A stretch of 64,000 nt of DNA from NCBI GenBank assembly GCA_044221725.1, contig JBGAON010000002.1, positions 224,001 to 288,000 on the forward strand. The letters are read 5' to 3'. A program made the position numbers and the translations under genes. Under the pieces are notes generated by a model that saw only the letters and a list, made by a program, of their open reading frames with translations, ran no database searches and was not told the origin of the DNA. Below are positions 12,866 through 33,669 of this stretch, piece after piece (position 1 is the stretch's first letter; every line of letters starts with the position of its first letter). This stretch comes from Elusimicrobiota bacterium (lineage in GTDB: Bacteria; Elusimicrobiota; Elusimicrobia; F11).

Positions 12866-13679
12866 GCATCCGCTGTTCGATCAGAAGTTTCTATCCGTTC
12901 CGTTTCGCCCACTTCGCGATCTGTTTAACCAATTCCTCTCCAATGGTGGCGCCACCTATTACATGCTTCGCGACGGCATTACGACAAAGTTCTATTTGTA
13001 CAACTACTTCGCTCAGCTGGCCGGGCAGCCTTTTTCGGCCGAATGGACGCTGACGCTGTACTCACAGAAAGGCGATCGATCAAAGACGGTTTCCGGAAAA
13101 TTTCGCGATGTTGAAACCGTCGTCGTGAACGCCGAAGACGTGGCAAGCGGATTTGACGATATGGGTGTTTGCCTCGCGCATATACGTCCGACGGATCGCG
13201 GTCGGAGCATGCGCGTTAGTTACCCGACGATTTTCTTCGCCGAATTTCTCACCGAACATGGACGTGCGTTCATTCACTCGAACGCTTATCCGGTTCCGCG
13301 AATTCACGAGGCGCACGATCTGATTGTCGGCTCCGTGAACCCGAAGGAATTTCCGTTTCTACTGGTGTCAAATTCGTGCGACCGAGTGTTCGGCATTCCA
13401 CGCGCCGTGCGAGAGGTTGGCCCCACGATCAAAGTGGAAAATCACCGGGGCGAAACACGCGAGCACGGGCTCGAGCCGATTGCTCCGCTTGGTTGTCGAA
13501 TGGTTCGTCTGGAAGAAATTTGGCGCGATCTCCCTCAGTTTTTCGAAGACAAACCCGGTGTGGTTCATGTTAGCGGTCCAAACGTTTTGTATTCGCCGTT
13601 GATCGTGCTCAAGCGGGCCAACGTGGAACATTTCCAAGGGCTTAAATGGCGCGACGTGCCCGCTCCAAAGGAACGTTAA
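12855..13679 (+). CDS. Hypothetical protein
   Basis: 274-aa ORF overlapping both neighbours; no family recognised. Confidence 0.7.
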   Translation: MSNKHPLFDQKFLSVPFRPLRDLFNQFLSNGGATYYMLRDGITTKFYLYNYFAQLAGQPFSAEWTLTLYSQKGDRSKTVSGKFRDVETVVVNAEDVASGFDDMGVCLAHIRPTDRGRSMRVSYPTIFFAEFLTEHGRAFIHSNAYPVPRIHEAHDLIVGSVNPKEFPFLLVSNSCDRVFGIPRAVREVGPTIKVENHRGETREHGLEPIAPLGCRMVRLEEIWRDLPQFFEDKPGVVHVSGPNVLYSPLIVLKRANVEHFQGLKWRDVPAPKER

Positions 13680-14550: not shown

Positions 14551-15471
14551 ATGGCAGCTTCTGAGCCTCTGATCAGCGTCATTGTTCCAACCTACAACCG
14601 AGCGGACACAATCCGCCAAGCGCTGCAATCCGTCGTCGATCAGACGCACGACAATTTCGAAGTGTTCGTGGCGGACGATGGTTCAACGGACAACACCGAA
14701 GACGTCGTGCGCTCGTTCAATGATCCTCGAATTCACTATCTGCGCCTTGAGCACACGGGGCGCCCGGCCGTGGCACGAAACGAGGCTCTTAGAAAATCAA
14801 AAGGCTCGTTTATTGCTTTTTTGGATTCGGACGATATCTGGTATCCCGAGAAGACGGCCCGGCAGCTGGCCGTTTTTGAAAAGTATCCGGATTTGTTGGC
14901 CGTAGCCACGACGGTCATGTGGTTTGATGGAACGTCCGAGTGGCGCGAAGACCGGTTGTGGAGCGATTGGCGTGTTCGCATGGTGGACGTCATGAAAAAC
15001 AACATGATTGTTTACTCTAGCACGCTGATGCGCGCGTCACTCATCCAGCAAATCGGGTTGACCAGCGAAGCGCTGGAAGTGAATGCGTCGGAAGATTTCG
15101 AATATTGGTTGCGCTTGCTTGATTACAAAGACCGGTCCATTCTCATCATGAAGGATGTGCTAACAAAATATCGAACGCACAAAGGCAGTCATGTTTTTGT
15201 CTTGTCGAAAAAAACGTTGCCCGAGGAAGAACGGTACGCGTTCTGCTTGAACATGTACAAGCACAAATATCCCGAGCTTGTTCGCGATTATATTGCGGCG
15301 TACAAGCAACGCATGAATATTGTGCGGGCGACTATCGCGGTTTATCACGGGGTAAAAAATCCGTCAGAGATTTTGTCCGATAATGTTCTGCCGTTCTTGA
15401 ACCGACTTGTGATTTGCGCGAAGTACTACACAAAAAAGATTCTCGGCAAGTTGCCAGAGCCAGCACGGTGA
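14551..15471 (+). CDS. Glycosyltransferase family 2
   Basis: SVIVPTYNR, DDGSTD, AFLDSDD, SEDFEYW. Confidence 0.92.
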   Translation: MAASEPLISVIVPTYNRADTIRQALQSVVDQTHDNFEVFVADDGSTDNTEDVVRSFNDPRIHYLRLEHTGRPAVARNEALRKSKGSFIAFLDSDDIWYPEKTARQLAVFEKYPDLLAVATTVMWFDGTSEWREDRLWSDWRVRMVDVMKNNMIVYSSTLMRASLIQQIGLTSEALEVNASEDFEYWLRLLDYKDRSILIMKDVLTKYRTHKGSHVFVLSKKTLPEEERYAFCLNMYKHKYPELVRDYIAAYKQRMNIVRATIAVYHGVKNPSEILSDNVLPFLNRLVICAKYYTKKILGKLPEPAR

Positions 15472-17249
15472 AGCAACGCTTCGTTCTTGTCCTGATATTT
15501 GTCTTTTCTGTTGGCGTTTTTTGGCTGGGCACCTTCGCTTCCATCGATAAATCCGACCTGCCGGCGCTTTTGTTTGACGGTGTGGCGAACGCTGAAGGCC
15601 TTCGCACCACGATGTTGGAGCTCCGGTCCGAGGTTTATCAGTATTACAAGAACACAGGCACCGAGAATATTGTGATGTCGGCTTACCATGGTTACGTCGA
15701 TCCCTTGAAGAGTCACAGCGTGACCGTTGATCTCGAGGGGGAAACCGTAACGATGCCTTCCGCCGTCATTAACGAAATGCGGGGATCGCTGCTTCTCCAT
15801 CCTTATGATGAGGTAAACGCAATCCGCGCGCTGCAGCAGATTCGGCCGCGGCAATGGCAGTTCAATCCACACATCTTTCAGTACGGCACCGTTTTTATTT
15901 ACTTGCTCGGTTTTGGGTTGCTGGTGGCGCAAAAGGTTGGTGCGTTTGTTTTGACGTCGGACATGAGCTACTACCTGGTTCATCCAAACCAGATGGCCAA
16001 ATTGTATGCGGTCGCCAAAATGTGGGTGGGCGTGATGACCGCGCTCGGCGTATTTCCGCTCTATGCGCTCGGAAAATTCTGGAAAAACCGCCGCGTCGGC
16101 CTTGTTGCCGCGAGCCTTTATCCGTTCGTGCCGTTGTTTTTTATTTTCGGTCATCACATGAAACCGCACGGACTCGCTATGCCGTTCGCGTTGGCAGCGA
16201 TACTTCTTTGTTTAAAAGCGTTCCTCGAGCAGCCGACGCGGAAACAGTATTTTGTCGCCGGCCTCGTGACCGGCATGTGTATCGGTGTAATTTACACGTC
16301 GGTTTTTATTTTTCCCGTTTTGCTTATGAGTTATTGGTTTAACGCGGAGCGATCGACGTCCGAAAAAGGGACGTTCGTGATGGCTTTGCTCGGCGTGGGC
16401 GTCGGGTTCTTAATCTTCAATCCGTTCTATGTTTTGACGCCCGCAGAACCGTTGCAAGAACTGCACACACTTTTTGGTCGTCACGTGGTCACAACATCGA
16501 TCCCTGCCAAACTCAAGCAATTTTTCGGCTACGAAGTTCAAGTCGGAATTGGACGCGCGCTCTTCTTCTTGTCTTTGCTCGGCATGATCGTTGGGTTTCG
16601 CGACGGCCAGCGGTCAACACGGTTCTTGTTAGCGACGACCGTGTTGTCGGTGATTCCCACATTAATTAATCGTGGAGATGCTTATTATTCCGGACCGACA
16701 TTCGCGCTGCTGTTGTTGTGGGTTGGCATCTTTGCGGATCGAATGGTGTTCAGCACGCCGCGCTCGGTGACGGCGAGTTTCTTGTTGGGAATTACCGTCG
16801 TGCACGCCGTTTTACTTCAGCTGACGTACGTTGCGTTGTACCGGCAGCCGCAACCCGAATACGATGCCGCGAAGTGGATCAACACAAACATTCCGAAGGG
16901 GGCAACGCTGGTTCGAATTGAGGAACAAGGGGAGCATTTTTCTATTCCTTATCGGACGTGGAGATACACCGGCTACTATCCGGAGAAGCCGCTGCGTCTT
17001 GAGTCGCTGGGTTTGCCCGGGGCTCTGGAGGCCGACACGTTACGCGTAGGCTCCGCTTCTGCGCAATATGTTTTGGCCACCACGCTCGGCCAATTGCCGA
17101 CCGTTTTCGAAACGAACGGTGCTTCTTATAAACAAGTGCACATGTCCCGCCGCTACACGCAACTGCAAAAATTTTTTCCATTTGATCTGTTCCCGTATTG
17201 CATGGCGAACTTTGCGGCCAAAATTTATGTGTACGAGCGCCAACCGTGA
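15468..17249 (+). CDS. GT-C fold membrane glycosyltransferase (ArnT/PMT-like)
   Basis: About 11 TM segments, loop HPYDE...FNPHIFQYG, C-terminal AAKWINTNIP; GTG start overlaps the upstream TGA. Confidence 0.7.
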   Translation: MKQRFVLVLIFVFSVGVFWLGTFASIDKSDLPALLFDGVANAEGLRTTMLELRSEVYQYYKNTGTENIVMSAYHGYVDPLKSHSVTVDLEGETVTMPSAVINEMRGSLLLHPYDEVNAIRALQQIRPRQWQFNPHIFQYGTVFIYLLGFGLLVAQKVGAFVLTSDMSYYLVHPNQMAKLYAVAKMWVGVMTALGVFPLYALGKFWKNRRVGLVAASLYPFVPLFFIFGHHMKPHGLAMPFALAAILLCLKAFLEQPTRKQYFVAGLVTGMCIGVIYTSVFIFPVLLMSYWFNAERSTSEKGTFVMALLGVGVGFLIFNPFYVLTPAEPLQELHTLFGRHVVTTSIPAKLKQFFGYEVQVGIGRALFFLSLLGMIVGFRDGQRSTRFLLATTVLSVIPTLINRGDAYYSGPTFALLLLWVGIFADRMVFSTPRSVTASFLLGITVVHAVLLQLTYVALYRQPQPEYDAAKWINTNIPKGATLVRIEEQGEHFSIPYRTWRYTGYYPEKPLRLESLGLPGALEADTLRVGSASAQYVLATTLGQLPTVFETNGASYKQVHMSRRYTQLQKFFPFDLFPYCMANFAAKIYVYERQP

Positions 17250-17281
17250 GGTCATTGGGGTGACGAGGTCATTGGGATGAC
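17248..17281 (+). repeat. 17-bp tandem duplication with one mismatch spanning an intergenic gap and a start codon
   Basis: GAGGTCATTGGGGTGAC (17248-17264) followed by GAGGTCATTGGGATGAC (17265-17281). Confidence 0.9.
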
Positions 17282-18596
17282 GAAGATTTGCACGATCGGT
17301 CTCTGGCATCTGGGTTGCACAATGTCCGCGCATCTCGCTTCGCTCGGTTTCAACGTTGTCGGCGTTGATACCGACGCCACCATTGTAAAGAATCTCAACA
17401 ATGGAAAAGCGCCGTTGTCCGAGCCGGGTTTGAATGACCTAATTACGAAACAAATGAAGGACGGACACTTGTCGTTCACCTCGTCGCTTAAAGAAGGAAT
17501 CTCCGAGGCATCGTTTGTTTGGATTACATTCGACACGCCGGTTCGAGACGATGACGCGGCGGACGTGGGATTTGTTGCAAAACAATTTTCTCGCGTCGCC
17601 GAAGAAAATCTGTCGGCGGAAGGAATCATTGTTTCTTACCAGGTCTCCGTTGGGTTTTGTTCCCAGTTGGAGAAATTGGCGGAGAAAGCCGGATTCGGAA
17701 ATATTCCCATTTGTTACGTGCCAGAAAACCTGCGTTTGGGAAATGCGCTCAATGTTTTGAGAAAGATGGATCGCCTGGTGGCCGGTGTTCGCGAGGAGGG
17801 TCATAAAAAAATATTCGCGCCGGTTTTTGAAAAGATTTGCTCAAACATAATTTGGATGAAAACAGAATCCGCCGAAATGACGAAGCACGCTTTGAATGGT
17901 TTTCTCGCGACGTCCGTTGTGTTTGCAAACGAAGTAGCGACGGTTTGCGAAAGCGTGGGCGCGGATGCACGCGATGTGGCGTTGGGACTTCTTTCCGACG
18001 AAAGAATCGGCCCCAAGGCCTATTTGAAACCAGGAGCCGCTTTTGCGGGCGGAACATTGGCCCGCGACGTAACATTTCTCCGAGAATTAAGCGAGAAAAG
18101 GCGAAATCTCTCGGCGAATTTTTTCGCTGCTGTCACGAAGAGCAATCAAAGCCATCGTGATTGGGCGAAGCGAAAGCTAATATCGGAAATCAAATCGTTT
18201 GATAAGAAAGTTATTTCGGTGTGGGGTTTGAGTTACAAAGGAGGAACCGATACGTTGCGACGCTCCTGGGCCGCAGAACTGGTCGAATGGTTGATCGCGA
18301 AAGGGGCGCGGGTGAAAGTTTTTGATCCATTGATAAAACAATCTCCGAAATCGTGGCAGAAAAAAGTGGAATTCGCTCGGTCCAAAGAAGAAGCGTTGGT
18401 GGGATCGAGAGCGCTCGTGTTTGGTAACGATGACGCCTTCTTTAAGGACCTTAACGTTTCCAATCTCGCGCGGATGACAAACCGATTGATTATTGATGCG
18501 AATGGAGTTGCGCGGCTTCGCCTGTTGGCCGCGGACGTACCAATTAAATATTTTTCAGTCGGGTTTTCAGCGACGAGGATCCTTCATGGGCGCTAA
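17277..18596 (+). CDS. UDP-glucose/GDP-mannose dehydrogenase-family protein lacking the catalytic Cys (LmbL-like)
   Basis: IGLWHLG, PENLRLG, AEMTKHALN, DERIG, FAGGTLARD (canonical FGGSCFPKD), GLSYKGGTD. Confidence 0.85.
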   Translation: MTKICTIGLWHLGCTMSAHLASLGFNVVGVDTDATIVKNLNNGKAPLSEPGLNDLITKQMKDGHLSFTSSLKEGISEASFVWITFDTPVRDDDAADVGFVAKQFSRVAEENLSAEGIIVSYQVSVGFCSQLEKLAEKAGFGNIPICYVPENLRLGNALNVLRKMDRLVAGVREEGHKKIFAPVFEKICSNIIWMKTESAEMTKHALNGFLATSVVFANEVATVCESVGADARDVALGLLSDERIGPKAYLKPGAAFAGGTLARDVTFLRELSEKRRNLSANFFAAVTKSNQSHRDWAKRKLISEIKSFDKKVISVWGLSYKGGTDTLRRSWAAELVEWLIAKGARVKVFDPLIKQSPKSWQKKVEFARSKEEALVGSRALVFGNDDAFFKDLNVSNLARMTNRLIIDANGVARLRLLAADVPIKYFSVGFSATRILHGR

Positions 18597-19455
18597 ATCG
18601 CCGCGCGATATTCTGTTAACGGGGGCGAGCGGTGCCATCGGAACGGCCATGGCTTCCGCGCTCGCGAAAGCCGGTTTTTCACTTCATCTGACGTCGCGTC
18701 AACCGAAAAAGTTGTCCGCGCTCCAGAAAAGTGTGAAGGCCGCTGGAGCGAATGCTTTTGTGTATGCGTTGGACCTTAAATGTCCGCAAAGCATTACCGC
18801 TGTCGTAAAAACATTTATGCAGCGATCCGCAAACCCGTTTGGGCTCATCTGCAACGCCGGGGACTTCGGCGTTTTGGGAGATTTTTCAAAAGTGTCGGTG
18901 GAGCGCTGGATTTCCGATTTTTCTCAAAACTTTCTGTCGAACGCACGGCTGCTGCACGCTTTTCTCGATGGAATGAAAAGAAAAAAGGCGCCAGAAGGTT
19001 CGGTTGTCATGTTGAGCGGCGCGGGATTGGGCGGCAACAGTTCGTTTGCGCATTTCAGTTGTTACAGCACGGCCAAAGCCGCGGTTACCCATTTGGTGGA
19101 AGCATTGGCGCCAGAGCTTTTGCCGTCTCGAATTCGGATCAACGCAATTTCGCCGGGGCAAGTGTACAGCAACTTAACCGAAACGATGATCAAAGCAGGC
19201 GTGAAGCGCGTGGGCGAATTGGCCACGAGTGCCATGCGTTGCAAAGAAACGGGCGGAGTTCCGCCGCAGCTTGCGGCGCAACTGACAGAATTTTTAATGA
19301 GTCCGGACGCCGGAGAAATCACCGGTCGGTTATTGAGTGCTCGTTTTGATCTGTCTGCGCTGAAGAAGCAGGCCGGACGCGTCGCAAAGGATCCGAATCT
19401 CTTCAAGCTTCGGCGAATCGATGACGCACTATTCTCCGTTGTGAAGCCCTCATGA
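18586..19455 (+). CDS. Short-chain dehydrogenase/reductase
   Basis: TGASGAIG, CNAG, YSTAK, INAISPG. Confidence 0.9.
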   Translation: MGAKSPRDILLTGASGAIGTAMASALAKAGFSLHLTSRQPKKLSALQKSVKAAGANAFVYALDLKCPQSITAVVKTFMQRSANPFGLICNAGDFGVLGDFSKVSVERWISDFSQNFLSNARLLHAFLDGMKRKKAPEGSVVMLSGAGLGGNSSFAHFSCYSTAKAAVTHLVEALAPELLPSRIRINAISPGQVYSNLTETMIKAGVKRVGELATSAMRCKETGGVPPQLAAQLTEFLMSPDAGEITGRLLSARFDLSALKKQAGRVAKDPNLFKLRRIDDALFSVVKPS

Positions 19456-20423
19456 AAGCGATTGTGACCGGTGCGGCCGGTTTCATTGGAAGCAATGTGG
19501 TTGACCGCTTGCTCGCGGACGGAGCGACCGTTATTGGCGTCGACAATTTGGCAACGGGCCGAAAACGGTTTCTTGAGCGCGCACTGAAAAACTCGAAGTT
19601 CCATTTTGAGAGGCGGGACCTGTCGGAGCGAACGGCTTTGGATGGTCTTTTAAACAAAGATACCAACTGGGTTTTTCATTTTGCGGCCAATGCGGACGTT
19701 CGTGACGGGTTGCTTCATCCGGAAAAAGACGTTCAGCAAAATATTTTGGTGACCTGGAATATCCTGGAAGCCATGCGGAAGGCCGATGTGCACCGAATTG
19801 TATTCAGTTCCACCGGAAGTATTTATGGCGAGGCGCCGGTGATTCCCACTCCGGAGGATTGCCCGTTTCCGGTTCAAACGTCGCTTTACGGAGCGTCCAA
19901 GCTTGCGGCCGAAGGACTGTTGTCGGCGTATGCGGAGGGCTACGGTTTTAAAGCACGCATTTTCCGTTTTGTTTCGATTTTGGGACCGCGTTACACGCAT
20001 GGACATGTTTTCGATTTCGTTCGGCAATTGAAACAGAATCCCAAAAAACTAAAAATTCTCGGCGATGGAAAACAAAAGAAATCGTATCTCGGTGTGGACG
20101 ATTGCATCGAAGCCATCCTCACAGCCATTCGTCACGATACCTCGGCAAAAATTGCGATTTATAATCTCGGTGCGGACGAATTCGTAACCGTCGACCAATC
20201 CATTGATGTCATCACCAAAGAATTGAACCTCCAGCCCGAAAGAATTTACGCGGGAGGAGATCGCGGTTGGGTGGGCGACAATCCTTTCATTTTTTTGAAA
20301 ACAGACAAGATACGAGCCCTGGGCTGGTCCAATAAATCGGATATTCGCGCCTGTGTCTCGCAGACGGTTCGTTTCTTGTTAGAAAACCCTTGGGTCTACG
20401 AAAAGGAGGCTGTTTCCCAATGA
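19452..20423 (+). CDS. NAD-dependent nucleotide-sugar epimerase (GalE/LmbM-like)
   Basis: TGAAGFIG, HFAANAD, SSTGSIYG, YGASK. Confidence 0.9.
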   Translation: MKAIVTGAAGFIGSNVVDRLLADGATVIGVDNLATGRKRFLERALKNSKFHFERRDLSERTALDGLLNKDTNWVFHFAANADVRDGLLHPEKDVQQNILVTWNILEAMRKADVHRIVFSSTGSIYGEAPVIPTPEDCPFPVQTSLYGASKLAAEGLLSAYAEGYGFKARIFRFVSILGPRYTHGHVFDFVRQLKQNPKKLKILGDGKQKKSYLGVDDCIEAILTAIRHDTSAKIAIYNLGADEFVTVDQSIDVITKELNLQPERIYAGGDRGWVGDNPFIFLKTDKIRALGWSNKSDIRACVSQTVRFLLENPWVYEKEAVSQ

Positions 20424-21403
20424 TCATCACGCGAACGCCGCTTCGAATCAGTCTCGGCGGTGGAGGAACCGATCTCCCTTCTTATTATTCCCGTTTCGGC
20501 GGCTTCGTAATTTCCGCGGCCATTGATTGTTACGTTTACATTACGCTGTACCGAATTTTTCCGAAGAAGTACATCGTTAAATATTCGACGCTCGAAACGG
20601 TCGATGAAATAAGCCAAATCCAACATCCAATTGTGCGCGAGGCTTTTAAGATGCACGGCATCGATCCGTATATCGAAATGGTGAGCATTGCCGACATTCC
20701 CGCTGGCACCGGGCTCGGTTCGTCGGGTGCGTTTAATGTCGGGTTGCTTCGTGCGATTCATGCTTTCAAGAAACATCACGTGTCGCCACAAGAATTGGCC
20801 GAACAGGCCTGTCGCATTGAGATCGATTTGCTGAAGGAGCCCGTCGGAAAACAGGACCAGTACATATCGGCGTTTGGCGGCGTCATCTGCATGGACATAA
20901 GTTCCTCGGGCGACGTGAACGTGACGCCATTAAAAATACCTGCCGAAACGTTGAACGATCTCGAGGATCATCTGCTCATGTTTTTCACGGGCTACTCGCG
21001 CAACGCGAGCGATGTGCTGAAGGATCAAAAAGTACGAACCGAAAGTGATGATAAGGCAATGATTGAAAATCTCCATTTCATCAAGGAGCTGGGGCATTCC
21101 ATTAAAACCTCTTTGGAAAACGGTCAGCCGGAGAAATTTGCGAGTTTGATGCACGAACACTGGTTGCACAAGAAAAAGCGTTCGGCCACGATTAGCAACG
21201 ACAACATTTCCCGTTGGTACGATCTTGCGCGCGAAAATGGCGCGCTCGGGGGAAAATTGATCGGCGCCGGCGGAGGCGGCTTTCTTATGTTTTACGCGAA
21301 GGATGCAGAACGCCTTCGAAAAGCAATGGCGAAAGAAGGGCTTACCGAGGTGCGATTTGGTTTTGACCACGAAGGCGCCAAAGTAATGGTGATGGGCGGG
21401 TGA
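20420..21403 (+). CDS. hddA: GHMP-family sugar-phosphate 1-kinase (HddA/LmbP-like)
   Basis: RTPLRISLGGGGTD, PAGTGLGSS, GKQDQY, GGKLIGAGGGGF. Confidence 0.9.
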   Translation: MIITRTPLRISLGGGGTDLPSYYSRFGGFVISAAIDCYVYITLYRIFPKKYIVKYSTLETVDEISQIQHPIVREAFKMHGIDPYIEMVSIADIPAGTGLGSSGAFNVGLLRAIHAFKKHHVSPQELAEQACRIEIDLLKEPVGKQDQYISAFGGVICMDISSSGDVNVTPLKIPAETLNDLEDHLLMFFTGYSRNASDVLKDQKVRTESDDKAMIENLHFIKELGHSIKTSLENGQPEKFASLMHEHWLHKKKRSATISNDNISRWYDLARENGALGGKLIGAGGGGFLMFYAKDAERLRKAMAKEGLTEVRFGFDHEGAKVMVMGG

Positions 21404-22395
21404 TTCGCGTCGGGCTCATTGGGGCCGGCCTGATTGGCGCAAAACGCGCGCAGCATATGGGCGACGCCAAACTTGTTGCTGTGCATGACAAGGATGTTTC
21501 TCGGTCTCGCGCGTTAGCGAAAAATTACGGAGCGCAGGTCGAGGAGAATTGGAAAACCCTGGTCGGCCGTTCGGACATTGACGCGATCGTTGTCGCAACG
21601 TCGCACGATGGTTTGGCGTCGTGTTCAGTCGCGGCGCTTAAATCCGGCAAGCATGTGCTCGTGGAAAAGCCCGGTGGACGAAACCCACAAGAGATCAAGT
21701 TGCAAATCCAAGCCGCTCGCGCGGCGCGCAAGGTTCTTCGCGTCGGTTTTAATCATCGCTTTCATCCCGGGTTGAAAAAAGCCGCCGAACTGGTCGCGTC
21801 AAAAGAGTTTGGGTCTCTTTTGTTTATTCGGGCGCGCTACGGCCATGGAGGCCGCGTCGGATATGAAAAAGAGTGGAGAGCGAACCCAAAAATCAGCGGG
21901 GGCGGCGAATTGTTGGATCAAGGCGTGCATTTGATCGATCTCACGCAGTGGATCGGCGGCACGTTCAATCCCGCGTGGTCCATGACGAACACATTTTTCT
22001 GGCCCATGAAGGTTGAAGATTATGGCTTCGTCGCGCTCAAATCGGCGGATTCCAAGCGCTGGGCTTGGTTGCACGCGAGTTGGGTGGAGTGGAAAAATGT
22101 TTTCCACTTTGAAATTTTCTGTGAACGCGCGAAGTTCGAAATCAGCGGATTGGGGGGAAGCTATGGTCCCGAAGAACTGAAATGTTTCCGAATGAAACCG
22201 GAGATGGGACCTCCGGAGGTCGATGTGTTTTCGTTTCCGAGCGAAGACGTTTCGTGGAAAAACGAATGGGAAGACTTTGAGAGAGCGATTCACGGGAAAC
22301 CGGAAACCATGGGCGCGCGCGGAGAAGATGCATTAAGAACCATGAACATTGTGCACTGGGTGTATGCGCAAAAAAAGAAAGCGCGTCGACGCTGA
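21400..22395 (+). CDS. Gfo/Idh/MocA oxidoreductase (LmbZ-like)
   Basis: IGAGLIG, GKHVLVEKP, VGFNHRF, GGGELLDQGVH. Confidence 0.9.
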   Translation: MIRVGLIGAGLIGAKRAQHMGDAKLVAVHDKDVSRSRALAKNYGAQVEENWKTLVGRSDIDAIVVATSHDGLASCSVAALKSGKHVLVEKPGGRNPQEIKLQIQAARAARKVLRVGFNHRFHPGLKKAAELVASKEFGSLLFIRARYGHGGRVGYEKEWRANPKISGGGELLDQGVHLIDLTQWIGGTFNPAWSMTNTFFWPMKVEDYGFVALKSADSKRWAWLHASWVEWKNVFHFEIFCERAKFEISGLGGSYGPEELKCFRMKPEMGPPEVDVFSFPSEDVSWKNEWEDFERAIHGKPETMGARGEDALRTMNIVHWVYAQKKKARRR

Positions 22396-23119
22396 AAATT
22401 TCCCGGTCGTGATATTGGCCGGTGGGCTGGGCACACGGCTTGGCTCGCTCACCGCGGGTCGCCCCAAAGCGCTTGTGCCGGTGGCCGGAAAGCCATTCTT
22501 GTTTCATCAACTTGAGTTGTTGCGAAGAAAAGGTTTGTCCCACGTGATTCTTTCTGTTGGTTACAAAGCGGCATTGATCAAACGAGCGGTCAAAGCGGCG
22601 AAAATTTCGGGAATGCGCATTGAATTCGTTGAGGACGGTCCGGTGCCTCTCGGAACGGGCGGCGCTGTCCGAAAAGCGGCCCAGTTGGTGGACGGTCCTT
22701 TCTTCGTTCTTTATGGCGATTCGTATCTAGAAATCAATTATCTTGCTGTCGCGCAGGCTTATAAAAAATCTGGAAAAAAGGGGTTAATGACGGTATATAG
22801 GAATAATAATCGACTTGATAAAAGCAACTTGATTTTTCGACGTGGTTTGATAAAGCGCTATTCAAAGAACGAGGTAACGCCGCAAATGAGGCACATTGAC
22901 TACGGACTGACCATTATTAATAAGGAGCAACTGAAATCCTTCCCCGCCCACCGAAAATTCGATTTAAGCGCGATTTTCCAAAAACTCATTAAAAAAAACG
23001 AAATGGCCGCGGTCGAAGTGAAAAAGCGATTCTACGAAGTCGGTTCTCCGTCCGGAATTCAAGCGCTCGAAGTGCACCTTGCGAGGAAACGACGATGTCC
23101 TATTCCGAAGATTTCTTAA
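22364..23119 (+). CDS. Sugar-1-phosphate nucleotidyltransferase (HddC/LmbO-like)
   Basis: ILAGGLGTRL, PKAL, LGTGGA, VLYGDS; start uncertain. Confidence 0.85.
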   Translation: MRKKRKRVDAENFPVVILAGGLGTRLGSLTAGRPKALVPVAGKPFLFHQLELLRRKGLSHVILSVGYKAALIKRAVKAAKISGMRIEFVEDGPVPLGTGGAVRKAAQLVDGPFFVLYGDSYLEINYLAVAQAYKKSGKKGLMTVYRNNNRLDKSNLIFRRGLIKRYSKNEVTPQMRHIDYGLTIINKEQLKSFPAHRKFDLSAIFQKLIKKNEMAAVEVKKRFYEVGSPSGIQALEVHLARKRRCPIPKIS

Positions 23120-23694
23120 AGCTATCCGCCGACATCACGAGTCGGCTGGACGTTACGGTTCTTGAGAAGATGGTCACCGCACTTTTTGATTTGCGTGAAC
23201 GCGGTGGACGGTTGTTTGTTCTCGGTGTGGGAGGAAGCGCAGCAAACGCGTCGCACGCCGTAAACGATTTTCGCAAGATCGCCAACATTGAAACCTACAC
23301 GCCGACCGACAACGCAGCGGAACTGACCGCGCGAGTGAACGACGATGGGTGGGATTCGTGTTTCGCGAATTGGCTTAAAGTGAGCCGCTTTTCGAAGAAC
23401 GATATGTTGATGATTTTCTCTGTTGGCGGCGGCGACAAGAAAAGAAACGTTAGTCCGAATCTCATCGTTGCAATGGACATGGCGAAATCTCTCGGCGCTC
23501 CGATTTTATCGGTCGTCGGCCGTGATGGCGGATATGCCGCACAGGTTTCCACGCATTGCGTTGTTATTCCGCCGCTCAACGCGGAGATGGTGACGCCGCA
23601 GACCGAAGGCTTTCAAGCAATTGTTTGGCACTTGCTGGTGTCTCACCCGAAATTAAAGAGTGCTCCGATGAAATGGGAGTCCATCACGAAGTAA
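23095..23694 (+). CDS. gmhA: SIS-domain ketose-phosphate isomerase (GmhA-like)
   Basis: GVGGSAANASH, ELTARVND, VGRDGG, QTEGFQ. Confidence 0.82.
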   Translation: MSYSEDFLKLSADITSRLDVTVLEKMVTALFDLRERGGRLFVLGVGGSAANASHAVNDFRKIANIETYTPTDNAAELTARVNDDGWDSCFANWLKVSRFSKNDMLMIFSVGGGDKKRNVSPNLIVAMDMAKSLGAPILSVVGRDGGYAAQVSTHCVVIPPLNAEMVTPQTEGFQAIVWHLLVSHPKLKSAPMKWESITK

Positions 23695-23696
23695 TC

Positions 23697-24818
23697 ATGG
23701 TTGAGAATAATTCCACGTCCACATCCAATCTCGTCGTCCAGCCGGAGCGTTTGAGCAAAAAAATAAAGCGTCTCGTGAAAGGTCCTCGCCCGGTGTTCCG
23801 AACACTCTTTGGTTTGCGCGCGTTGCGAGAGGGCATCAAAGGGTATGTCAAAGGACGGCGTGGAGCGAAGGACCATTTGGCGGCCACAATTTCCTTTATC
23901 AGCGGCTCAAACACGGTGGCCGGACGCCCAATGAATATCACAATTGAACCAACGAGCGCCTGCAATCTTGCCTGCCCGATCTGTGAAACCGGAGACCGAC
24001 GACTCGAGCGTCCTATGAAGCACATGACGATGGACGATTTCAAAACGATCATCGACAAGATTGCTCCGCACACGAACACGTTGATGTTTTATTTCATGGG
24101 CGAGCCTTTTATTAATCAGGATTCTTACGCGATGCTGCGGTACGCCAAAGACAAAGGTATTCCATTTATCACAACCTGTACGAACGGCGATTTTGTGAAC
24201 GCCGAGAAGCTCATCGACAGCGGTATCGACGAAATTAGCTTTCAGATGGGTGGGCTAACGCAGGAAACCCACCAAACGTACAGAATCAACAGCAATCTTG
24301 AGCGCGTGATGAAAAATCTCCAAGAAACAATTCGCGTGCGAAACGAAAGAAAATCAAAACTAATCATTAAAAGCGGTTTGATCATCATGAAGCACAATGA
24401 GCACGAAGTGGTGCCGTTCTTAAAACAAATGAAGGACCTTGGCGTGGATCAACCGCACATTGTGGACACCGTCATTCGAACGTACGAGGAAGGCGTCAAA
24501 TATCTTCCGACCGATCAGAGTCACTGGAAATACGATCCCGAGGCGTTCAAACAAGGCGTCGTGAAACCACGGTTCTTACCGCCGAATGCGTGCCCATGGA
24601 TTTATTATTCGCTTTCGATTCACGTGAACGGAAACGTGGTTCCGTGTTGCTGGGATCCGACCGGCAAATACGTAATGGGAAATCTCGTCACGGAGTCGCT
24701 CGATGCTGTTTGGAATGGCCCCAAGTTTCGCGCGTTCCGCGATCAACTTCATAAGGATCAAGGACAGATTGAGATTTGTAAGTTGTGCTCGTCCTACCCT
24801 CACAGCCCCATCCGTTGA
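23697..24818 (+). CDS. Radical SAM protein with SPASM/twitch auxiliary cluster domain
   Basis: CNLACPIC, FMGEP, TNG, C-terminal CPW...GNVVPCC...CKLC. Confidence 0.9.
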   Translation: MVENNSTSTSNLVVQPERLSKKIKRLVKGPRPVFRTLFGLRALREGIKGYVKGRRGAKDHLAATISFISGSNTVAGRPMNITIEPTSACNLACPICETGDRRLERPMKHMTMDDFKTIIDKIAPHTNTLMFYFMGEPFINQDSYAMLRYAKDKGIPFITTCTNGDFVNAEKLIDSGIDEISFQMGGLTQETHQTYRINSNLERVMKNLQETIRVRNERKSKLIIKSGLIIMKHNEHEVVPFLKQMKDLGVDQPHIVDTVIRTYEEGVKYLPTDQSHWKYDPEAFKQGVVKPRFLPPNACPWIYYSLSIHVNGNVVPCCWDPTGKYVMGNLVTESLDAVWNGPKFRAFRDQLHKDQGQIEICKLCSSYPHSPIR

Positions 24819-24820
24819 CC

Positions 24821-25354
24821 ATGGCAATGGCCGTGTTTCTTGATCGAGATGGCGTGCTGAACGAAGCGATTGTGCGTGAAGGAAAACCTTTCGCCCCTCA
24901 GGCCATGGAAGATCTCAAGCTCGCGCCCGGCGCCGTCGATGCTTGCCATCAACTAAAGACCGCCGGATTTCTTCTCATTGGCGTCACGAACCAGCCGGAC
25001 GTGGTTCGCGGAACGACAAAAAAAGAATTGGTGGAAAGCATCAATGCGCACGTCTCCAAAGAACTTGGCTTGCACGATTTGCGGACGTGTTACCACGACA
25101 ACGCCGACAATTGTTTGTGTCGCAAGCCAAAGCCCGGCATGATTTTGGACGCTGCAAAGCAATGGAAGATAGATTTGTCCCGCAGCTACATGGTCGGTGA
25201 TCGTTCAGGGGATATTGAAGCCGGGCGACGGGCCGGCGTTACCACCATTTTTATCGAACACCACTATAGTGAGGAGTTGAAACTCAAGCCGGATTTTGTG
25301 ACGGCATCTCTTAAGGAGGCGAGTCTATGGATCCTAAAAAACTCGAGGCAGTAA
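24821..25354 (+). CDS. gmhB: HAD-IIIA sugar bisphosphate phosphatase (GmhB/LmbK-like)
   Basis: FLDRDGV, VTNQ, CYH...CLCRKPKPGM, MVGDRSGD. Confidence 0.9.
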   Translation: MAMAVFLDRDGVLNEAIVREGKPFAPQAMEDLKLAPGAVDACHQLKTAGFLLIGVTNQPDVVRGTTKKELVESINAHVSKELGLHDLRTCYHDNADNCLCRKPKPGMILDAAKQWKIDLSRSYMVGDRSGDIEAGRRAGVTTIFIEHHYSEELKLKPDFVTASLKEASLWILKNSRQ

Positions 25355-26067
25355 AAGATCCGCAGAAACTTAAGATCAAGATTTTTGCTGATGGGGCCAA
25401 CAAAGAGGGAATGTTGGCCATGTACGCGCGGCCTTACATCAAAGGCTTCACGACCAATCCCACTCTGATGCGCAAAGCCGGCATTTCCGATTACAAAGCT
25501 TTTGCGCAGGACGTTCTAAAGAGCATCAAAGATCGCCCAATTTCATTTGAAGTGTTCTCCGATGACCTGGAAGAAATGGAGCGTCAAGCGGTAGAGATTG
25601 CGTCGTGGGGCACGAACGTGTACGTAAAGATTCCGGTGACGAACACAAAGGGAACATTTTGCGGCGATGTCATTCGCGCGCTAGCGAATAAGAAAGTGAA
25701 GATGAACGTCACCGCGGTCATGACATTGGAGCAAATCAAGCAAATCGTTCCTTGCATGAACAACGGCGTGCCGGGCGTTATCTCGGTTTTTGCCGGACGC
25801 GTGGCGGACACAGGAAGAGACCCGGTCCCTCATATGCAGCAGGCGCTTACTATCCTGAAGCCGTTTCCGAATTTGGAGTTGCTGTGGGCGAGCCCGCGCG
25901 AGTTGCTTAACATTTTTCAGGCCGACGAGATAGGGTGTCACATCATCACCGTCACAAACGACATTCTCGAAAAGCTGTCGCTTTTGAACAAAGATCTTTC
26001 GCATTATTCTCTCGAAACCGTTCAAATGTTTTACAACGACGCTCAAAAATCCGGATTTTCCTTGTAA
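25327..26067 (+). CDS. tal: Transaldolase (short type; LmbR-like)
   Basis: IFADGA, GFTTNPTL, VYVKIP, NVTA, SVFAGR, LLWASPRE. Confidence 0.9.
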   Translation: MDPKKLEAVKDPQKLKIKIFADGANKEGMLAMYARPYIKGFTTNPTLMRKAGISDYKAFAQDVLKSIKDRPISFEVFSDDLEEMERQAVEIASWGTNVYVKIPVTNTKGTFCGDVIRALANKKVKMNVTAVMTLEQIKQIVPCMNNGVPGVISVFAGRVADTGRDPVPHMQQALTILKPFPNLELLWASPRELLNIFQADEIGCHIITVTNDILEKLSLLNKDLSHYSLETVQMFYNDAQKSGFSL

Positions 26068-26073
26068 GACCCA

Positions 26074-26805
26074 TTGACCAAACTTTCGATCATTATTCCA
26101 GCCTTTAACGAAAGGCCTACCGTTGAGCAGCTTCTAAAAGAAGTGATTGCTGTTGATCTCGCACCGCTCGGCGTCGAAAAAGAAATTATCGTTGTCGAAA
26201 GTGGATCGACCGATGGCACGCGCGAGGTGGTCAAAGATTTTGAAAGCAAAGGGCTCGTAAAGGCCATTTACCAACCGAAACCCCGCGGCAAAGGAAATGC
26301 GGTGCGCGCCGCCTTCGCGACGCTTACGGGGGATATCGTTCTCATTCAAGACGCCGACCTTGAATACCGCGTGTCGGAATATCCGGATTTGTTGAAACCG
26401 CTTTTGTCGGGGCAAACCGATTTTGTTTTGGGATCGCGTCACCTCGGGAAAGGCGATTGGCATTTTCGGAAATTCGTGCACGGAAAATTGTCCGCGGCCT
26501 TTATGAATTTTGGGAACAAATTGTGCAACACGCTCTTCAATATTCTGTACGGCGTTGATTTAACGGACCCCACAACGATGTTTAAGGTGTTTCGCGCGTC
26601 GTGTATCCGCGGAGTCACGTTTCGTTCGGATTACTTCGAGTTGGATTTGGAGATCGTGGGAAAACTGATTCGTCGGAAATATTTCCCGATCGAGATTCCG
26701 ATCAGTTACGTGTCGCGAGGGTTTGATGAAGGGAAGAAAATTCGGATTTCGCGTGATGGTTTCCTGGTCATCTACGCGATGTTTCGGTTTCGGTGGTTTG
26801 ATTGA
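26074..26805 (+). CDS. GT2, polyprenol-phosphate glycosyltransferase (DPM-synthase-like)
   Basis: IIPAFNE, SGSTDG, IQDADLEY, GSR, EGKKI. Confidence 0.88.
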   Translation: MTKLSIIIPAFNERPTVEQLLKEVIAVDLAPLGVEKEIIVVESGSTDGTREVVKDFESKGLVKAIYQPKPRGKGNAVRAAFATLTGDIVLIQDADLEYRVSEYPDLLKPLLSGQTDFVLGSRHLGKGDWHFRKFVHGKLSAAFMNFGNKLCNTLFNILYGVDLTDPTTMFKVFRASCIRGVTFRSDYFELDLEIVGKLIRRKYFPIEIPISYVSRGFDEGKKIRISRDGFLVIYAMFRFRWFD

Positions 26806-28025: not shown

Positions 28026-29087
28026 ATGGATGAGTTGCTAAAAAGACACGAAGCGATTCCCGGTCAGGTTTTGCACCACGGTGAAACCGATCCGAACCTT
28101 TATATTTATAACGCTCACCTCGAAAAAGGCGATACGGAAAAGGCAGCAAAGTTTCTTGAATATCGAAAGAAATGGGAAAAGGCTCGAACCTCTGATGAAT
28201 TGTCGCCCCACCCGCTTGAAGTCGCGTTCGCTTTTCAAAACTCCTGCAATTTGGCGTGCCCGCATTGCTACCGGCAATTCAACGAAACGAAAGATCCGCG
28301 CAATTCTTTGCAATACGACGAAATAATTCGGCTCATCGATGAATGCAAGGAAATCGGCGTTCATTCCATCCAGCTCGGCGCCGGCATCGAAAGCTTTCAG
28401 TACCCGAAAATAAACGACATCATTAAATATATTGGCGCGAAAGGTTTTGAAGATTTTTAGGTGTCGACCAACGGTCAGTTGATGGACGAAGAGAAGAGCA
28501 AGTTGTTGCTCGATTCGAATGTTACGCGTATCCCGGTATCGATGGATGCCATCTCACCACAAACCTATGCGAAATCGCGCGGCGGCAGTTATTACAGGCT
28601 CATGAAAAATATTTTCCAATTCTTGGAACTGCGCGAGAAGCGGAATCAAAAGTTGCCGATTCTGCGCGTATCTTTTGTTCGGTACAACTTGACCGAGCAC
28701 GAGACCGAAGACTTTATTCGCTTTTGGAAAAAAATTGCGAACGAGGTGGACGTTCAGCCTTTGATCGATGTACGCAATGTGAACGAGCTCCGCTACGACA
28801 CGATCGAACCAGAAAAAATTAGCTGCCGATATCCAACGAACATGATGTGGATTGATTGGAATGGCGACTATCGCCCATGCTGCACCGATTTCTCGAAGCT
28901 CGTTAAAGTGGGAAACGTGAAAGATGGCGGTATATTAAAAGCCTGGCACGGTGAAAATATTAATGATCTCCGTGCGCAGTTGAGTCGAAAAAAGAAACTG
29001 AACCGCGCCTGCGTGAACTGTTTGCGTTCGATGAACAGTTCCGAAACCTACGAGCCGTTAACCAAAGGACGCAAAAAGTCTGCTTAA
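28026..29087 (+). pseudogene. Radical SAM/twitch protein interrupted by one in-frame TAG (28458-28460); nonsense allele, base-call error or read-through
   Basis: CNLACPHC lies before the stop; STNG and C..PCC..CVNC lie after it in the same frame (GFEDF*VSTNG). Confidence 0.8.
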
Positions 29088-29100: not shown

Positions 29101-30759
29101 TTGAAGCACTTGATCATCTTGGCCTCTGTCACGATCGGATTGGGTTTTTGGGGCCTGTCCTGGGGCCTTCCTTCGGAATCTCGCCGTGAATTGTTTTTAA
29201 AGCCCGCGCTTCGAACGCCGGAGTTCTATGCGCAACTCGAGCGGTTGCGCACCACTCGATACAACGAAATGGGAATGAACAGCGCCGCGTACGCTGGCCG
29301 TCTTCAACGCGAAGGTCAGCAATTTCACGGTCCCACCGATATCTTGTTCTGTTATGGTTCGTACCTCGTGAGAAGCCACGACGCCGATGAACAGCAGACG
29401 CTCGTCGCGGTGTCACGACTCAATCCGCTGAAAGGGAAATGGTACCCGCACGCGTTCTACTACGGTGGAGGGTACATTTATCCGTTGGCGTTTTTTCTCG
29501 GTTTGGGGAAAGTCATCGGTTTTGTGACGTTGGTACCGCAGGTGTCTTTTTACTACGAGCATGCGAACGAAATGGGGAAAATTTTCCTCATGTTGCGCTC
29601 GTGGAGCGTTGTCGGGCTGTTGTTCAGTTGCATGTGTCTGTATGTCTGCGCGAAACAATTTGCGTCGAGATCCGTGGCGTTTTGGTCGAGTTTGTTTTTT
29701 GTTCTTGCACCGGTGAATCTCGCGTTTTCCAAAATCGGCAAGCCGCACACCTGGGGGCCCGGATGGACCCTGCTCGCGATAGGGATGTGCGCCCGATTTA
29801 AAGAGTCGCAGCGAACGCGTGACTTGTTGTTGGCCGCCGCGTTTATGGGATTTGCGATTGGGACGACAACGAGTCAGTGCGTCTTTTTTCCGTTTCTCGT
29901 TTGGGCCATAGGAATGCGCTCTCCAAAATTGTTCGTCGCGCGTTCATTGATGGCGTTTGTGGTGGTTTGCGGCGTTTTCCTCGTTTTGAATCCCACGTTG
30001 CCGTTTCATTTTCAGGATTTCATGGACGAGGTTCGGTTCATCGGTTCGTGGTATCCGTTTAAAGTCCGCATTCCGGCGATATTTGAGTTCGTTTATCACT
30101 CGGTGCTGCCCGCTTTAACGCCGGTGTTGTTTGTTGTCTCGGTGGCCGGATTGGTCGTTGTGATCGCAAACTCGCCGGATCGCAAAGTGCGCCATCTGTT
30201 GTTGTTATTCCTGTTGCCTCTCGCGTTGGTTTCGTTTCAGGTTCAAGCGGCGACCAAGGAGGCCATTCAGATTCGGATATTTCTTTCAGGAGTGGCGTTG
30301 CTGTCTTTTGCGGCCGCGTATTTTTCGTTTCAGTTTTCATGGGGTGTCGCTGTGCGCTGGATTGTTTTGTCGGTGTTGTTCGGGTTTGCCGCGCTTTACA
30401 ATCTTCATTTTGCGTCCGACCGGGCGCCCAACGATAACGCTTCGCTGGCATCAAAATGGATCGCCGCAACGATTCCCGAAGGATCGACTTTTGAAATGTT
30501 TTATTTCATCCCGACGCCCGACCAATTGCCGCCGGTGGATTTTCAGACGTACAAATTTGTCTCGTACCGATCCGGAGAGGCCGGTCAAAAGGGGAATTAT
30601 CTTCTGGTGAACCCGATTGGCATTGATATCGAAAAGGAAGTATTGGCGAAAGGGTACGTGCTCGTGAAGAAGTTTGAAACATCACCGCTGCAGAAGCTTA
30701 AACTCCCGGACTATTTTTCGAACGCGAACTTTCCGGTTCTGATTTATCAGAAAACGTAA
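29101..30759 (+). CDS. GT-C fold membrane glycosyltransferase (ArnT/PMT-like)
   Basis: WGLP, HDADE...WYPHAFYYG loop, many TMs, ASKWIAATIP. Confidence 0.72.
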   Translation: MKHLIILASVTIGLGFWGLSWGLPSESRRELFLKPALRTPEFYAQLERLRTTRYNEMGMNSAAYAGRLQREGQQFHGPTDILFCYGSYLVRSHDADEQQTLVAVSRLNPLKGKWYPHAFYYGGGYIYPLAFFLGLGKVIGFVTLVPQVSFYYEHANEMGKIFLMLRSWSVVGLLFSCMCLYVCAKQFASRSVAFWSSLFFVLAPVNLAFSKIGKPHTWGPGWTLLAIGMCARFKESQRTRDLLLAAAFMGFAIGTTTSQCVFFPFLVWAIGMRSPKLFVARSLMAFVVVCGVFLVLNPTLPFHFQDFMDEVRFIGSWYPFKVRIPAIFEFVYHSVLPALTPVLFVVSVAGLVVVIANSPDRKVRHLLLLFLLPLALVSFQVQAATKEAIQIRIFLSGVALLSFAAAYFSFQFSWGVAVRWIVLSVLFGFAALYNLHFASDRAPNDNASLASKWIAATIPEGSTFEMFYFIPTPDQLPPVDFQTYKFVSYRSGEAGQKGNYLLVNPIGIDIEKEVLAKGYVLVKKFETSPLQKLKLPDYFSNANFPVLIYQKT

Positions 30760-30768: not shown

Positions 30769-32226
30769 CTACGGTTTTTCGGCTACGACCACGACCGACA
30801 ATCCAAACGGTGGATCAATATAATCCTCGATTTTTAAAATCTTCACGAGAAAGTCGAACAGCCGAACCTGTCGGCTCGGAAATAATTTCTTCTTCAGCAC
30901 GCGTCCATTAATAAACCAACCAATCGCTCCAAGCATATTTAAGTAGGTGGACTTTTTTACCGTGAGCCCGCTTTCTTCGATAATCTTTGACAGCGATTCT
31001 TTTGAGTAGCGTCGGAAATGTCCCACCTGTTTATCAATGCTCCCATAAAGAAGTTGGTGGGCGGGGACCAAAATGACCAGTCTTCCGCCGGAGGGCAAAA
31101 GGTCCCGAATGTTGCGCAGCGCCTTCCCATGATCCTCAATGTGTTCGAGCACGTTCATCGAGAGCACCGTGTTTGGTTTTAACTGTTCGGCCACGGCACG
31201 CGTTTCGTTATCGAGAAGAAGATCAAGTTTTCTCACGTGGACGTTCGTGAACATTCGGAACTTCCGTTTCAAATCGTCGAGATAAAACTCTTCGAGATCT
31301 GTTGCGACGACCGATTCCGATTCGAGCAAGAACGTGGTGATGTTCCCTGTCCCGGATCCGGTTTCGAGCACGCGCGTGCCGACGTCTGGCAAAACCTTTT
31401 TGGCGAGCCAGCTGTTGTATGCGCTTGCACCCTCCATGATACGGAGCGCTCGCCACACGGCCGTGTTCTCAAACAAGTCATCGATCAGCCAGTATTTGAT
31501 AATCGTGAAGAGCACAAGAATTCCGTCAAACCACGTCGATTTTTTCCCTTCGGTGGCGGTTCGGCCGTTGAACGAAATGGGGACTTCGTAAATGGCGCAG
31601 CGAAGTTTGCTGATCTTCGCCGTGATCTCCGGCTCGATGCCGAACCGATTCGAACGCAGATTAATGCTTTTCATGATGTCGGTTTTGAACATCTTGTAAC
31701 CCGTCACCATGTCGGTGAGTCCAAGATCCGTAAAAATATTCGAGATAAACGTGATGATCTTGTTGCTCATGATGTTCGAGAAAGAGAGAACGCGTCGGCT
31801 TTCGCCGAGGAAGCGCGAGCCGTACACCACGTCCGCCTGTCCGAGAAGAATCGGCTCCATCAATCTTCCGTATTCGCTCGGATCGTATTCCAGATCGGCG
31901 TCTTGGATGATCAGAAGATTCCCGGTCGCTTCTTTAAGCCCGGCGCGAATCGCTGCGCCTTTTCCCTGGTTCGTCGGGTGATAAATGAATTTAAAAGCAA
32001 TGGACGCTCTTGAGCTTTGCGGAACAATTGAGTGATCGCTCTGGAATTTTTTTAGCCACACTTGGGTACCGTCCGTCGATCCGTCGTCCACAAGAATGAC
32101 TTCCATCGGCCACTCGAGCACGCCGATCTTCTCGAGAAGCTGGGGAAGAAATATTTTTTCGTTGTAAACCGGGATGATCACCGACAAAAGTCGGAGCGGC
32201 GGGAGTTCCATCGTTTCAGTTGGCAT
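30769..32226 (-). CDS. Fusion of DPM-synthase-like GT2 and class I SAM methyltransferase
   Basis: IIPVYNE, DDGSTD, QDADLEY; then VLETGSGTG and NVLEHI. Confidence 0.88.
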   Translation of the reverse strand: MPTETMELPPLRLLSVIIPVYNEKIFLPQLLEKIGVLEWPMEVILVDDGSTDGTQVWLKKFQSDHSIVPQSSRASIAFKFIYHPTNQGKGAAIRAGLKEATGNLLIIQDADLEYDPSEYGRLMEPILLGQADVVYGSRFLGESRRVLSFSNIMSNKIITFISNIFTDLGLTDMVTGYKMFKTDIMKSINLRSNRFGIEPEITAKISKLRCAIYEVPISFNGRTATEGKKSTWFDGILVLFTIIKYWLIDDLFENTAVWRALRIMEGASAYNSWLAKKVLPDVGTRVLETGSGTGNITTFLLESESVVATDLEEFYLDDLKRKFRMFTNVHVRKLDLLLDNETRAVAEQLKPNTVLSMNVLEHIEDHGKALRNIRDLLPSGGRLVILVPAHQLLYGSIDKQVGHFRRYSKESLSKIIEESGLTVKKSTYLNMLGAIGWFINGRVLKKKLFPSRQVRLFDFLVKILKIEDYIDPPFGLSVVVVAEKP

Positions 32227-33575: not shown

Positions 33576-33599
33576 GCCTGGGCTTTATTTCCCGGATTG

Positions 33600-33628: not shown

Positions 33629-33669
33629 TTTTTCACATGGCAATTATGCTTGATTTTTAAATACAAATC

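Follow-up and report, generated by a model that had tools for sequence, protein, structure and literature searches.

Straight-chain octose nucleotides have been characterised from Streptomyces antibiotics, and the tailoring of the lincosamide sugar follows a known order of steps that reportedly includes a 6,8-dehydration. LmbM, LmbL, CcbZ and CcbS are described as turning guanosine diphosphate (GDP)-octose into GDP-lincosamide (PMC12945683), and K, L, M, N, Z, P, O and S of the celesticetin (ccb) cluster are given as C8 enzymes in Table 2 of PMC4351081. Two other kinds of system come close to the locus described here: the GDP-D-glycero-alpha-D-manno-heptose pathway (GmhA, HddA, GmhB, HddC), with its logic of isomerase, 1-kinase, phosphatase and nucleotidyltransferase, and the lipid-monosaccharide systems ArnC/ArnT, GtrB/Gtr and dolichol monophosphate mannose (DPM) synthase/PMT. 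We analysed a block of ten genes followed by a family 2 glycosyltransferase (GT2) gene in an Elusimicrobiota genome (G000, 2.82 Mb, 94% complete), within a stretch of 64,000 nucleotides that we call the window (G000:C4:224001-288000). Nine of the ten genes form a conserved cassette that works like the lincosamide octose branch. We lean slightly towards the view that its product is a nucleoside diphosphate (NDP)-8-deoxy-octose that is loaded onto a lipid and transferred outside the membrane for envelope glycosylation.

The comparison needed genuine Ccb sequences. A kinase query of 401 genomes of a Streptomyces-like genus (chosen by SsgA copy number) gave 13 loci; a profile search of the same genomes with the alignment of L, at E 1e-92, found nothing, because CcbL is divergent. 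Locus L110 has the gene order K, L, M, N, Z...P, O, S, R, Q, T, V together with salicylate genes, which fits the ccb layout in the table cited above, and the C-terminal domain of its Gfo protein matches the CcbZ carrier domain in the PDB (9dkr) at 84 of 85 residues. We therefore treat L110 as the true ccb cluster. Four more Streptomyces-like loci, L113-L116 (G670, G474, G503, G407), hold K-L-M-N-Z-P-O-(S)-R clusters with no room for a carrier domain between Z and N, and are lincosamide-related octose clusters.

Composition and conservation of the cassette

The window as a whole is a glycan island: besides many GT2 and GT4 genes it encodes a MurJ-type flippase, several membrane proteins resembling PMT_2, and NeuB-type and amidotransferase proteins. 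A sequence-only reading of this DNA had named ten genes and a GT2, and all of them are where it had placed them and in the families it had given (open reading frame (ORF) list, Pfam, NCBIfam). They are almost all overlapping, with intergenic gaps from the gene resembling UDP-glucose dehydrogenase (UGDH) to the GT2 of -11, -4, -4, -4, -47, -25, +2, -34, -28 and +6 (some start codons being uncertain), and GC content across them is flat at about 0.50-0.52.

17277..18596, + strand: LmbL/CcbL-type UGDH-like protein without the catalytic Cys (motifs GLWHLG, PENLRLG, AEMTKHALN, GGTLARD)
18586..19455, + strand: cassette-type short-chain dehydrogenase/reductase (SDR) of a divergent subtype, predicted ketoreductase in the place of LmbS (Pfam, locus conservation)
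19452..20423, + strand: LmbM/CcbM-like NAD-dependent epimerase, an extended SDR (40% to CcbM, reciprocal best hit among many paralogues)
20420..21403, + strand: HddA-family GHMP sugar-phosphate 1-kinase, in the LmbP role (NCBIfam, trees; groups apart from CcbP)
21400..22395, + strand: LmbZ/CcbZ-like Gfo/Idh/MocA oxidoreductase (38% to CcbZ, common motifs, reciprocal best hit)
22349..23119, + strand: LmbO/HddC-like nucleotidyltransferase (start codon uncertain; predicted to use GTP)
23095..23694, + strand: LmbN/CcbN-type SIS isomerase, not a canonical GmhA (scores, insertions, tree)
23697..24818, + strand: twitch-type radical S-adenosylmethionine (SAM) enzyme (SPASM/twitch), a local insert from another glycan-locus family (family survey)
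24821..25354, + strand: LmbK/CcbK-like HAD bisphosphate phosphatase (alternative start 24785; 40% to CcbK)
25327..26067, + strand: TIGR02134-type transaldolase (360 bits, cut-off 282; groups apart from CcbR)
26074..26805, + strand: soluble GT2 resembling DPM synthase and ArnC, predicted polyprenyl-phosphate sugar synthase (no transmembrane segment by hydropathy)

A scan of GTDB genomes with the UGDH-like alignment gave at least 564 confirmed stretches, and at least 120 homologues of the protein reach E <1e-109. For two of the genes, the close homologues that carry a name come from Elusimicrobia. The loci analysed are the best 80, chosen by similarity to the window L protein, and related loci among them are not independent; they span 14 named bacterial phyla and archaea. 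Among the 47 of these that are at least 16 kb long, the SDR is present in 47, the Gfo protein in 46, the kinase in 44, the epimerase in 43, the HAD phosphatase in 39, the transaldolase in 38, the nucleotidyltransferase in 36 and the SIS isomerase in 35. All nine genes other than the radical SAM gene occur together in 31 of the 47, so the block is not a chance clustering, and the co-occurrence in other genomes that had been put forward as a test, above all of the UGDH-like gene with the Gfo gene, is found. The nine-gene set without the radical SAM gene is a conserved cassette.

The radical SAM gene stands outside it. It occurs in none of the 47 long cassette loci, and the 36 long loci analysed for its own family hold no cassette gene at 38% or above, which is why we reject it as a core member and why the step it had been thought to add to the pathway is not upheld. 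That family has at least 120 members at 54-67%, in other amino-sugar glycan loci, which hold DegT, amidotransferase and GT4 genes; no copy of the gene turned up in 200 further genomes from the phylum. HygY, NeoN and SpeY are twitch radical SAM sugar enzymes, and the window enzyme, whose best PDB match is BtrN (E 1.8e-12), has the CxxxCxxC motif and C-terminal twitch Cys set of such enzymes but belongs to a family of its own that comes from other loci. A Cys in DPC or DAC is present in 92 of 100 family rows with the motif, where the window copy has DTV. The gene is a lineage-specific local insert and need not act on the cassette sugar.

The SDR, by contrast with the CcbS-like aminotransferase that occurs in 5 of the 80 loci, is found in every long locus, in agreement with the earlier suggestion that it occupies the aminotransferase position. 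No LmbS/CcbS aminotransferase is present in the block, and the DegT homologues elsewhere on the contig are at 27-39%. The SDR keeps YxxxK and C-terminal motifs specific to its family. The copy in the window is divergent, with 24-32% identity to most cassette SDRs and 59% to that of the same-genus genome G002, and its subtype is common to relatives. We infer that it is a C6 ketoreductase replacing the aminotransferase.

Homologous loci adjoin varied glycan genes, and the cassette is also carried on plasmids, in Lawsonia intracellularis and in two Rhizobium strains; Rhizobium jaguaris CCGE525 and Rhizobium sp. CB3060 are among its cultured, non-pathogenic carriers. A class I methyltransferase family recurs beside the cassette in 13 loci (including L076:671-1399) and is absent from the window; it may methylate the sugar. 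The archaeal cassettes L049 and L058 have a fused nucleotidyltransferase-HAD protein and a different transaldolase clade, and would be good intermediates for rooting.

Kinship of the cassette enzymes

Eight of the nine Lmb/Ccb families are co-located in the block, as the earlier reading had it. Identities to the Ccb proteins are 34 (L), 40 (M), 30 (N), 38 (Z), 31 (P), 32 (O), 31 (R) and 40% (K), thus 31-40% for all except N, with reciprocal best hits. For 8 of 8 Ccb sugar enzymes the best match among all G000 ORFs is the window gene, above the canonical UGDH, GmhA and GmhB paralogues, a result that is trivial for the kinase and the transaldolase, which have no paralogue in G000. The proposal that the window proteins group with lincosamide enzymes stands, from trees and motifs, for L, N, K, O and Z, which have derived motifs or insertions in common with Ccb, and more loosely for M; it does not stand for the kinase and the transaldolase. 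The K, O, Z and M trees are quick trees on subsampled rows.

The clearest case is L. Where UDP-glucose dehydrogenases show GxGYVG and GGSCFPKD, window L has GLWHLG and GGTLARD, the latter in 119 of the top 120 homologues, and it keeps the Lys of AEMTKH; CcbL has GLWHLG, VPENLRLG, AELVKHATN and GSTLQRD. In a tree with four true UGDHs as outgroup, the cassette and Ccb/Lmb-like proteins fall on one side at 100/99 (with long branches flagged). The Cys of GGSCxPKD is catalytic in UGDH, and since this Cys and GxGxxG are absent, a true UDP-glucose 6-dehydrogenase activity for L was rejected. The loss of the Cys fits a substrate with a secondary alcohol at C6, and so with at least seven carbons, and beta-elimination in the tail from a 6-ketone would need a C8. 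On these chemical grounds L makes what we regard as the strongest argument for an octose.

Z matches CcbZ at E 4e-57, with the motifs GGRxGYExEWRA and GLxGSYG in common, in a tree whose outgroups are three long branches. The group that joins M to CcbM is supported at 98 in a quick tree and also holds epimerases from other loci. CcbK nests inside the window HAD clade (SH-aLRT 96), and O lies in a common group with its Ccb counterpart (97); the HADs of some cassettes, like those of the four Lmb-like Streptomyces clusters, fall outside the CcbK/window clade. A complex prediction for an L-type with a Z-type protein scored 0.00 and was not used either way.

The SIS isomerase scores 42 bits on the gmhA model (cut-off 209) and at most 37 bits against solved GmhAs, compared with 80 BLAST bits to CcbN, with which it has two insertions in common. 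Over 77 rows, the loop after a conserved Ser has 3-4 residues in 8 GmhA-type rows, 10 residues in 51 (47 cassette-type and 4 Lmb-like Streptomyces) and 13 residues in three Ccb and two archaeal (L049, L058) rows, with 6 or 8 in 2 rows and 11 rows outside the pattern. A tree of 25 rows splits cassette and Ccb proteins from GmhA-like rows at 99/97, and an approximately unbiased (AU) test rejects a grouping of the cassette with canonical GmhA (p 0.029). A canonical GmhA identity for the window SIS was rejected on the low gmhA score, the CcbN insertions and this test; we call the cassette and Ccb proteins N-type.

N-type SIS genes travel with a transaldolase, present in the locus for 61 of 65 N-type rows vs 2 of 9 GmhA-like rows. 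Two of the four N-type rows lacking one are partial views of ccb clusters and two lie at contig ends, and one of the two GmhA-like rows with a transaldolase is a frameshifted N-type gene. In loci chosen by SIS alone, 6 of 8 have a transaldolase. This coupling suggests that the ketose phosphate is not supplied by central metabolism. An N-type SIS is present elsewhere in 8 of 10 genomes whose L locus lacks a SIS gene, compared with 9 of 110 genomes in a sample of the phylum, in which L was found in 1. The loss of SIS from a locus was considered as a sign of a heptose pathway and rejected, since G002 and these 8 genomes keep an N-type SIS elsewhere.

Strict orthology with LmbR and LmbP was rejected for the transaldolase and the kinase, which are of the same families and other clades. 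The transaldolase scores 360 bits on TIGR02134 vs 105 for CcbR, and five other TIGR02134 loci examined all adjoin sugar-nucleotide genes. Other transaldolase clades serve cassettes L049, L058, L075 and L117, so the function appears to be kept while the gene is swapped.

Overall, the block operates much as the lincosamide octose branch does, yet it falls outside that branch, because it has an SDR in place of a DegT aminotransferase and takes its transaldolase and kinase from other clades. It differs further in that the window has no carrier domain, S-glycosyltransferase or condensation genes, in its setting among GT2 and GT-C genes of a glycan island, and in its range, which takes in archaea and no fewer than 14 bacterial phyla.

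Predicted pathway, exit route and alternatives

From the enzyme families, the following route can be proposed. The transaldolase would transfer a three-carbon unit from fructose-6-phosphate or sedoheptulose-7-phosphate to ribose-5-phosphate, giving octulose-8-phosphate, which the CcbN-type SIS would convert to octose-8-phosphate. The kinase, the HAD phosphatase and the nucleotidyltransferase would then give octose-1,8-bisphosphate, octose-1-phosphate and NDP-octose, the nucleotide probably being GDP. The CcbM-like epimerase and the CcbL/CcbZ pair would carry out epimerisation and dehydration to a 6-keto-8-deoxy sugar, and the SDR would reduce the ketone where lincosamide producers transaminate. 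That the product is an octose of some kind is quite likely; from the genes we deduce each of these reactions as well as the number of carbons, the nucleotide and the acceptor.

For the exit, the GT2 likely loads the sugar onto polyprenyl phosphate, and an ArnT-like GT-C protein likely transfers it to an envelope acceptor. Two candidates lie in the window:

15414..17249, + strand: ArnT/PMT-like GT-C membrane glycosyltransferase, likely the final transferase (PMT_2 E 4.8e-9; about 9 hydrophobic segments by hydropathy)
29101..30759, + strand: second GT-C-like membrane protein, an alternative acceptor-side transferase (26% to the GT-C at 15414)

The best solved relative of the GT2 is dolichol monophosphate mannose synthase (E 1.7e-20), followed by ArnC. 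For the GT-C just upstream of the block, the first Atlas match is a putative ArnT family (score 0.98); its single-sequence fold, at pLDDT 42, was uninformative. In G002, the genes for L, SDR, M, P, Z, O, K, GT2 (69%) and GT-C (24%) form an isolated run between serA and fpg, with the N-type SIS and the transaldolase in another locus. The GT2 and the GT-C are the sole transferases of that run, which ties them to the cassette sugar in this lineage and bears out the earlier assignment of the GT2 to the block. By homology and linkage, a predicted polyprenyl-phosphate GT2 and a GT-C are found in one conserved locus. As in ArnC/ArnT, GtrB/Gtr and DPM synthase/PMT systems, a DPM-synthase-like GT2 and an ArnT/PMT-like GT-C flank the cassette; unlike in these systems, the window GT2 lacks a transmembrane anchor. 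No small GtrA/ArnEF-type flippase was recognised among the larger window ORFs, which were those scanned.

Several findings weigh against a lipid-carried 8-deoxy-octose, and we give them here together with the alternatives to which they lend themselves. No cassette carrier with a known glycan structure was found: a single 3.9 kb query of cassette DNA had no match in E. coli genomes and the SIS had none in phages, so there is no link to a solved O-antigen. In addition, N-type SIS and transaldolase genes also serve other modules, including a locus with an HpcH-type aldolase and a cytidylyltransferase, and so do not by themselves fix the chain length.

The product may be an octose that is tailored or exported otherwise, either not 8-deoxy or passed by cytoplasmic GT4 and GT2 enzymes into a flippase-dependent polysaccharide, possibly with an oxidation by the radical SAM enzyme. 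Only 10 cassette loci have a close homologue of the GT2 (44-53%), which is also present in 3 loci with a different type of kinase; most cassette loci lack one and lie amid varied glycan genes. The island has several further GT2 and GT-C genes, the GT2 gene is overlapped by a GT4 gene, and a flippase of the MurJ type is encoded at 9831. The divergent subtype of the window SDR and the co-oriented, tightly packed radical SAM gene would also suit such a product. We nevertheless judge this unlikely, given the isolated G002 locus with its two transferases and the joint conservation of L and Z with Ccb-like motifs.

A variant heptose pathway, with a transaldolase that only boosts sedoheptulose-7-phosphate, a divergent GmhA as the SIS and redox genes that lead to a modified NDP-heptose, seems improbable to a similar or slightly greater degree. 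The kinase, at 37-42% to other HddA-like kinases vs 31% to CcbP, groups apart from the latter and scores 149-158 bits against solved heptose kinases. The transaldolase has canonical-type Glu and Phe, vs Gln and Leu in CcbR, at positions with established roles (by alignment to small transaldolases), and sits on its own long branch apart from CcbR; it is the only transaldolase-family gene found in G000 and could be housekeeping, although among 31 near-complete genomes sampled 18 showed no transaldolase. The SIS tree has no root and its cassette branch is long, and the AU test does not reject a grouping of the cassette with all GmhA-like rows (p 0.145). For four genes the best-scoring curated models are those of heptose enzymes, but all four score under cut-off (GmhA 42/209, HddA 173/600, GmhB 85-111/150-250, HddC 100/300, the HddA cut-off being strict enough that 0 of 151 genomes and 0 controls reach it). 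The heptose pathway also leaves unexplained the linked transaldolase and the four redox genes. Moreover, the CcbN insertions and the rejected sister grouping with canonical GmhA, the rarity of transaldolase genes in GmhA-type loci, the separate canonical GmhA/HldE/GmhB set in G000 and the presumed lack in a heptose of a C8 for the L/Z reaction all speak for the longer sugar.

A small secreted lincosamide-like glycoside, as the antibiotic clusters that are the only characterised relatives and the four further Streptomyces clusters with a K-L-M-N-Z-P-O-S-R layout might suggest, is very improbable here, as the 62 window ORFs include no adenylation, MDMPI or PIG-L type condensation genes and the block sits in an extended glycan island that also encodes a flippase, GTs and NeuB, the homologous loci likewise adjoining glycan genes.

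Other modules of the island and wider meaning

The window holds further modules for unusual sugars. At 39962-45237 a second higher-sugar module comprises an epimerase, a reversed HldE-like nucleotidyltransferase-kinase, another epimerase and a split transketolase, with homologues (58%, 27%, 54%, 42%) in L296, where their immediate neighbours are transaldolase, HAD and N-type SIS genes; L296 also has a Gfo gene and another Cys-less UGDH variant (GLTHLG, GGSNLGRD). The window core may feed both the L/Z/SDR and the 39962-45237 modules. By annotation only, the latter layout resembles Coxiella cbu0674-cbu0678, listed in PMC5843353 as an isomerase, two epimerases and a reversed HldE. Loci L180 (G002:C4:50000-69999, at 4122-13162) and L166 (G001:C2) combine an N-type SIS, a transaldolase, an HpcH-type aldolase, a CMP-sugar-type cytidylyltransferase, two SDRs and a Gfo protein, which by a domain scan of L180 is a possible route to a long ulosonic acid.

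Positions 93-9027 hold a NeuB synthase, two formyltransferases, a deacetylase, an Asn-synthase-like gene and a HisH/HisF/WbuX amidotransferase trio, that is, a modified nonulosonate module. A third SIS type, unlike GmhA and the N type, lies at 54154-54705 and is found at 72-74% in same-genus genomes. Additional GT2 genes resembling DPM synthase, one of them as a fusion with a methyltransferase, a minus-strand PMT_2-like GT-C gene and a B12 radical SAM gene lie at 30769-35930, 39252-39965 and 55901-56608, so that several predicted lipid-monosaccharide decoration systems are present within one island. A second radical SAM/SPASM gene at 28026-29087 has an in-frame TAG at codon 145 (28458-28460); ARAGORN reported no selenocysteine or pyrrolysine tRNA, and the gene is a pseudogene or the product of an assembly error.

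Taken jointly, these observations permit a wider and more tentative reading, which we hold to be possible though somewhat short of even. Straight-chain octoses would be common and overlooked in bacterial and archaeal envelopes, a core of transaldolase and CcbN-type isomerase would feed octose-8-phosphate to several tailoring modules, and the lincosamide sugar pathway would have been recruited from an envelope pathway. The island would then have two branches, one through L, Z and the SDR to a lipid-carried 8-deoxy-octose and one through the reversed-HldE/transketolase module at 39962-45237.

Three things are new here: the window proteins were compared directly with genuine Ccb proteins, the radical SAM gene was set apart from the cassette, and the GT2 and GT-C were linked to it. 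The literature, at the level of titles and abstract openings and with most subscription journals outside the search, gave no account of such a cassette among glycan genes. If the cassette makes an octose for the envelope, a class of sugar is missing from the glycan inventories of hundreds of species, to judge from the L-type stretches, and a large family labelled UDP-glucose 6-dehydrogenase and another labelled phosphoheptose isomerase would be mis-annotated. The lincosamide pathway would, in that case, gain an origin in envelope metabolism.

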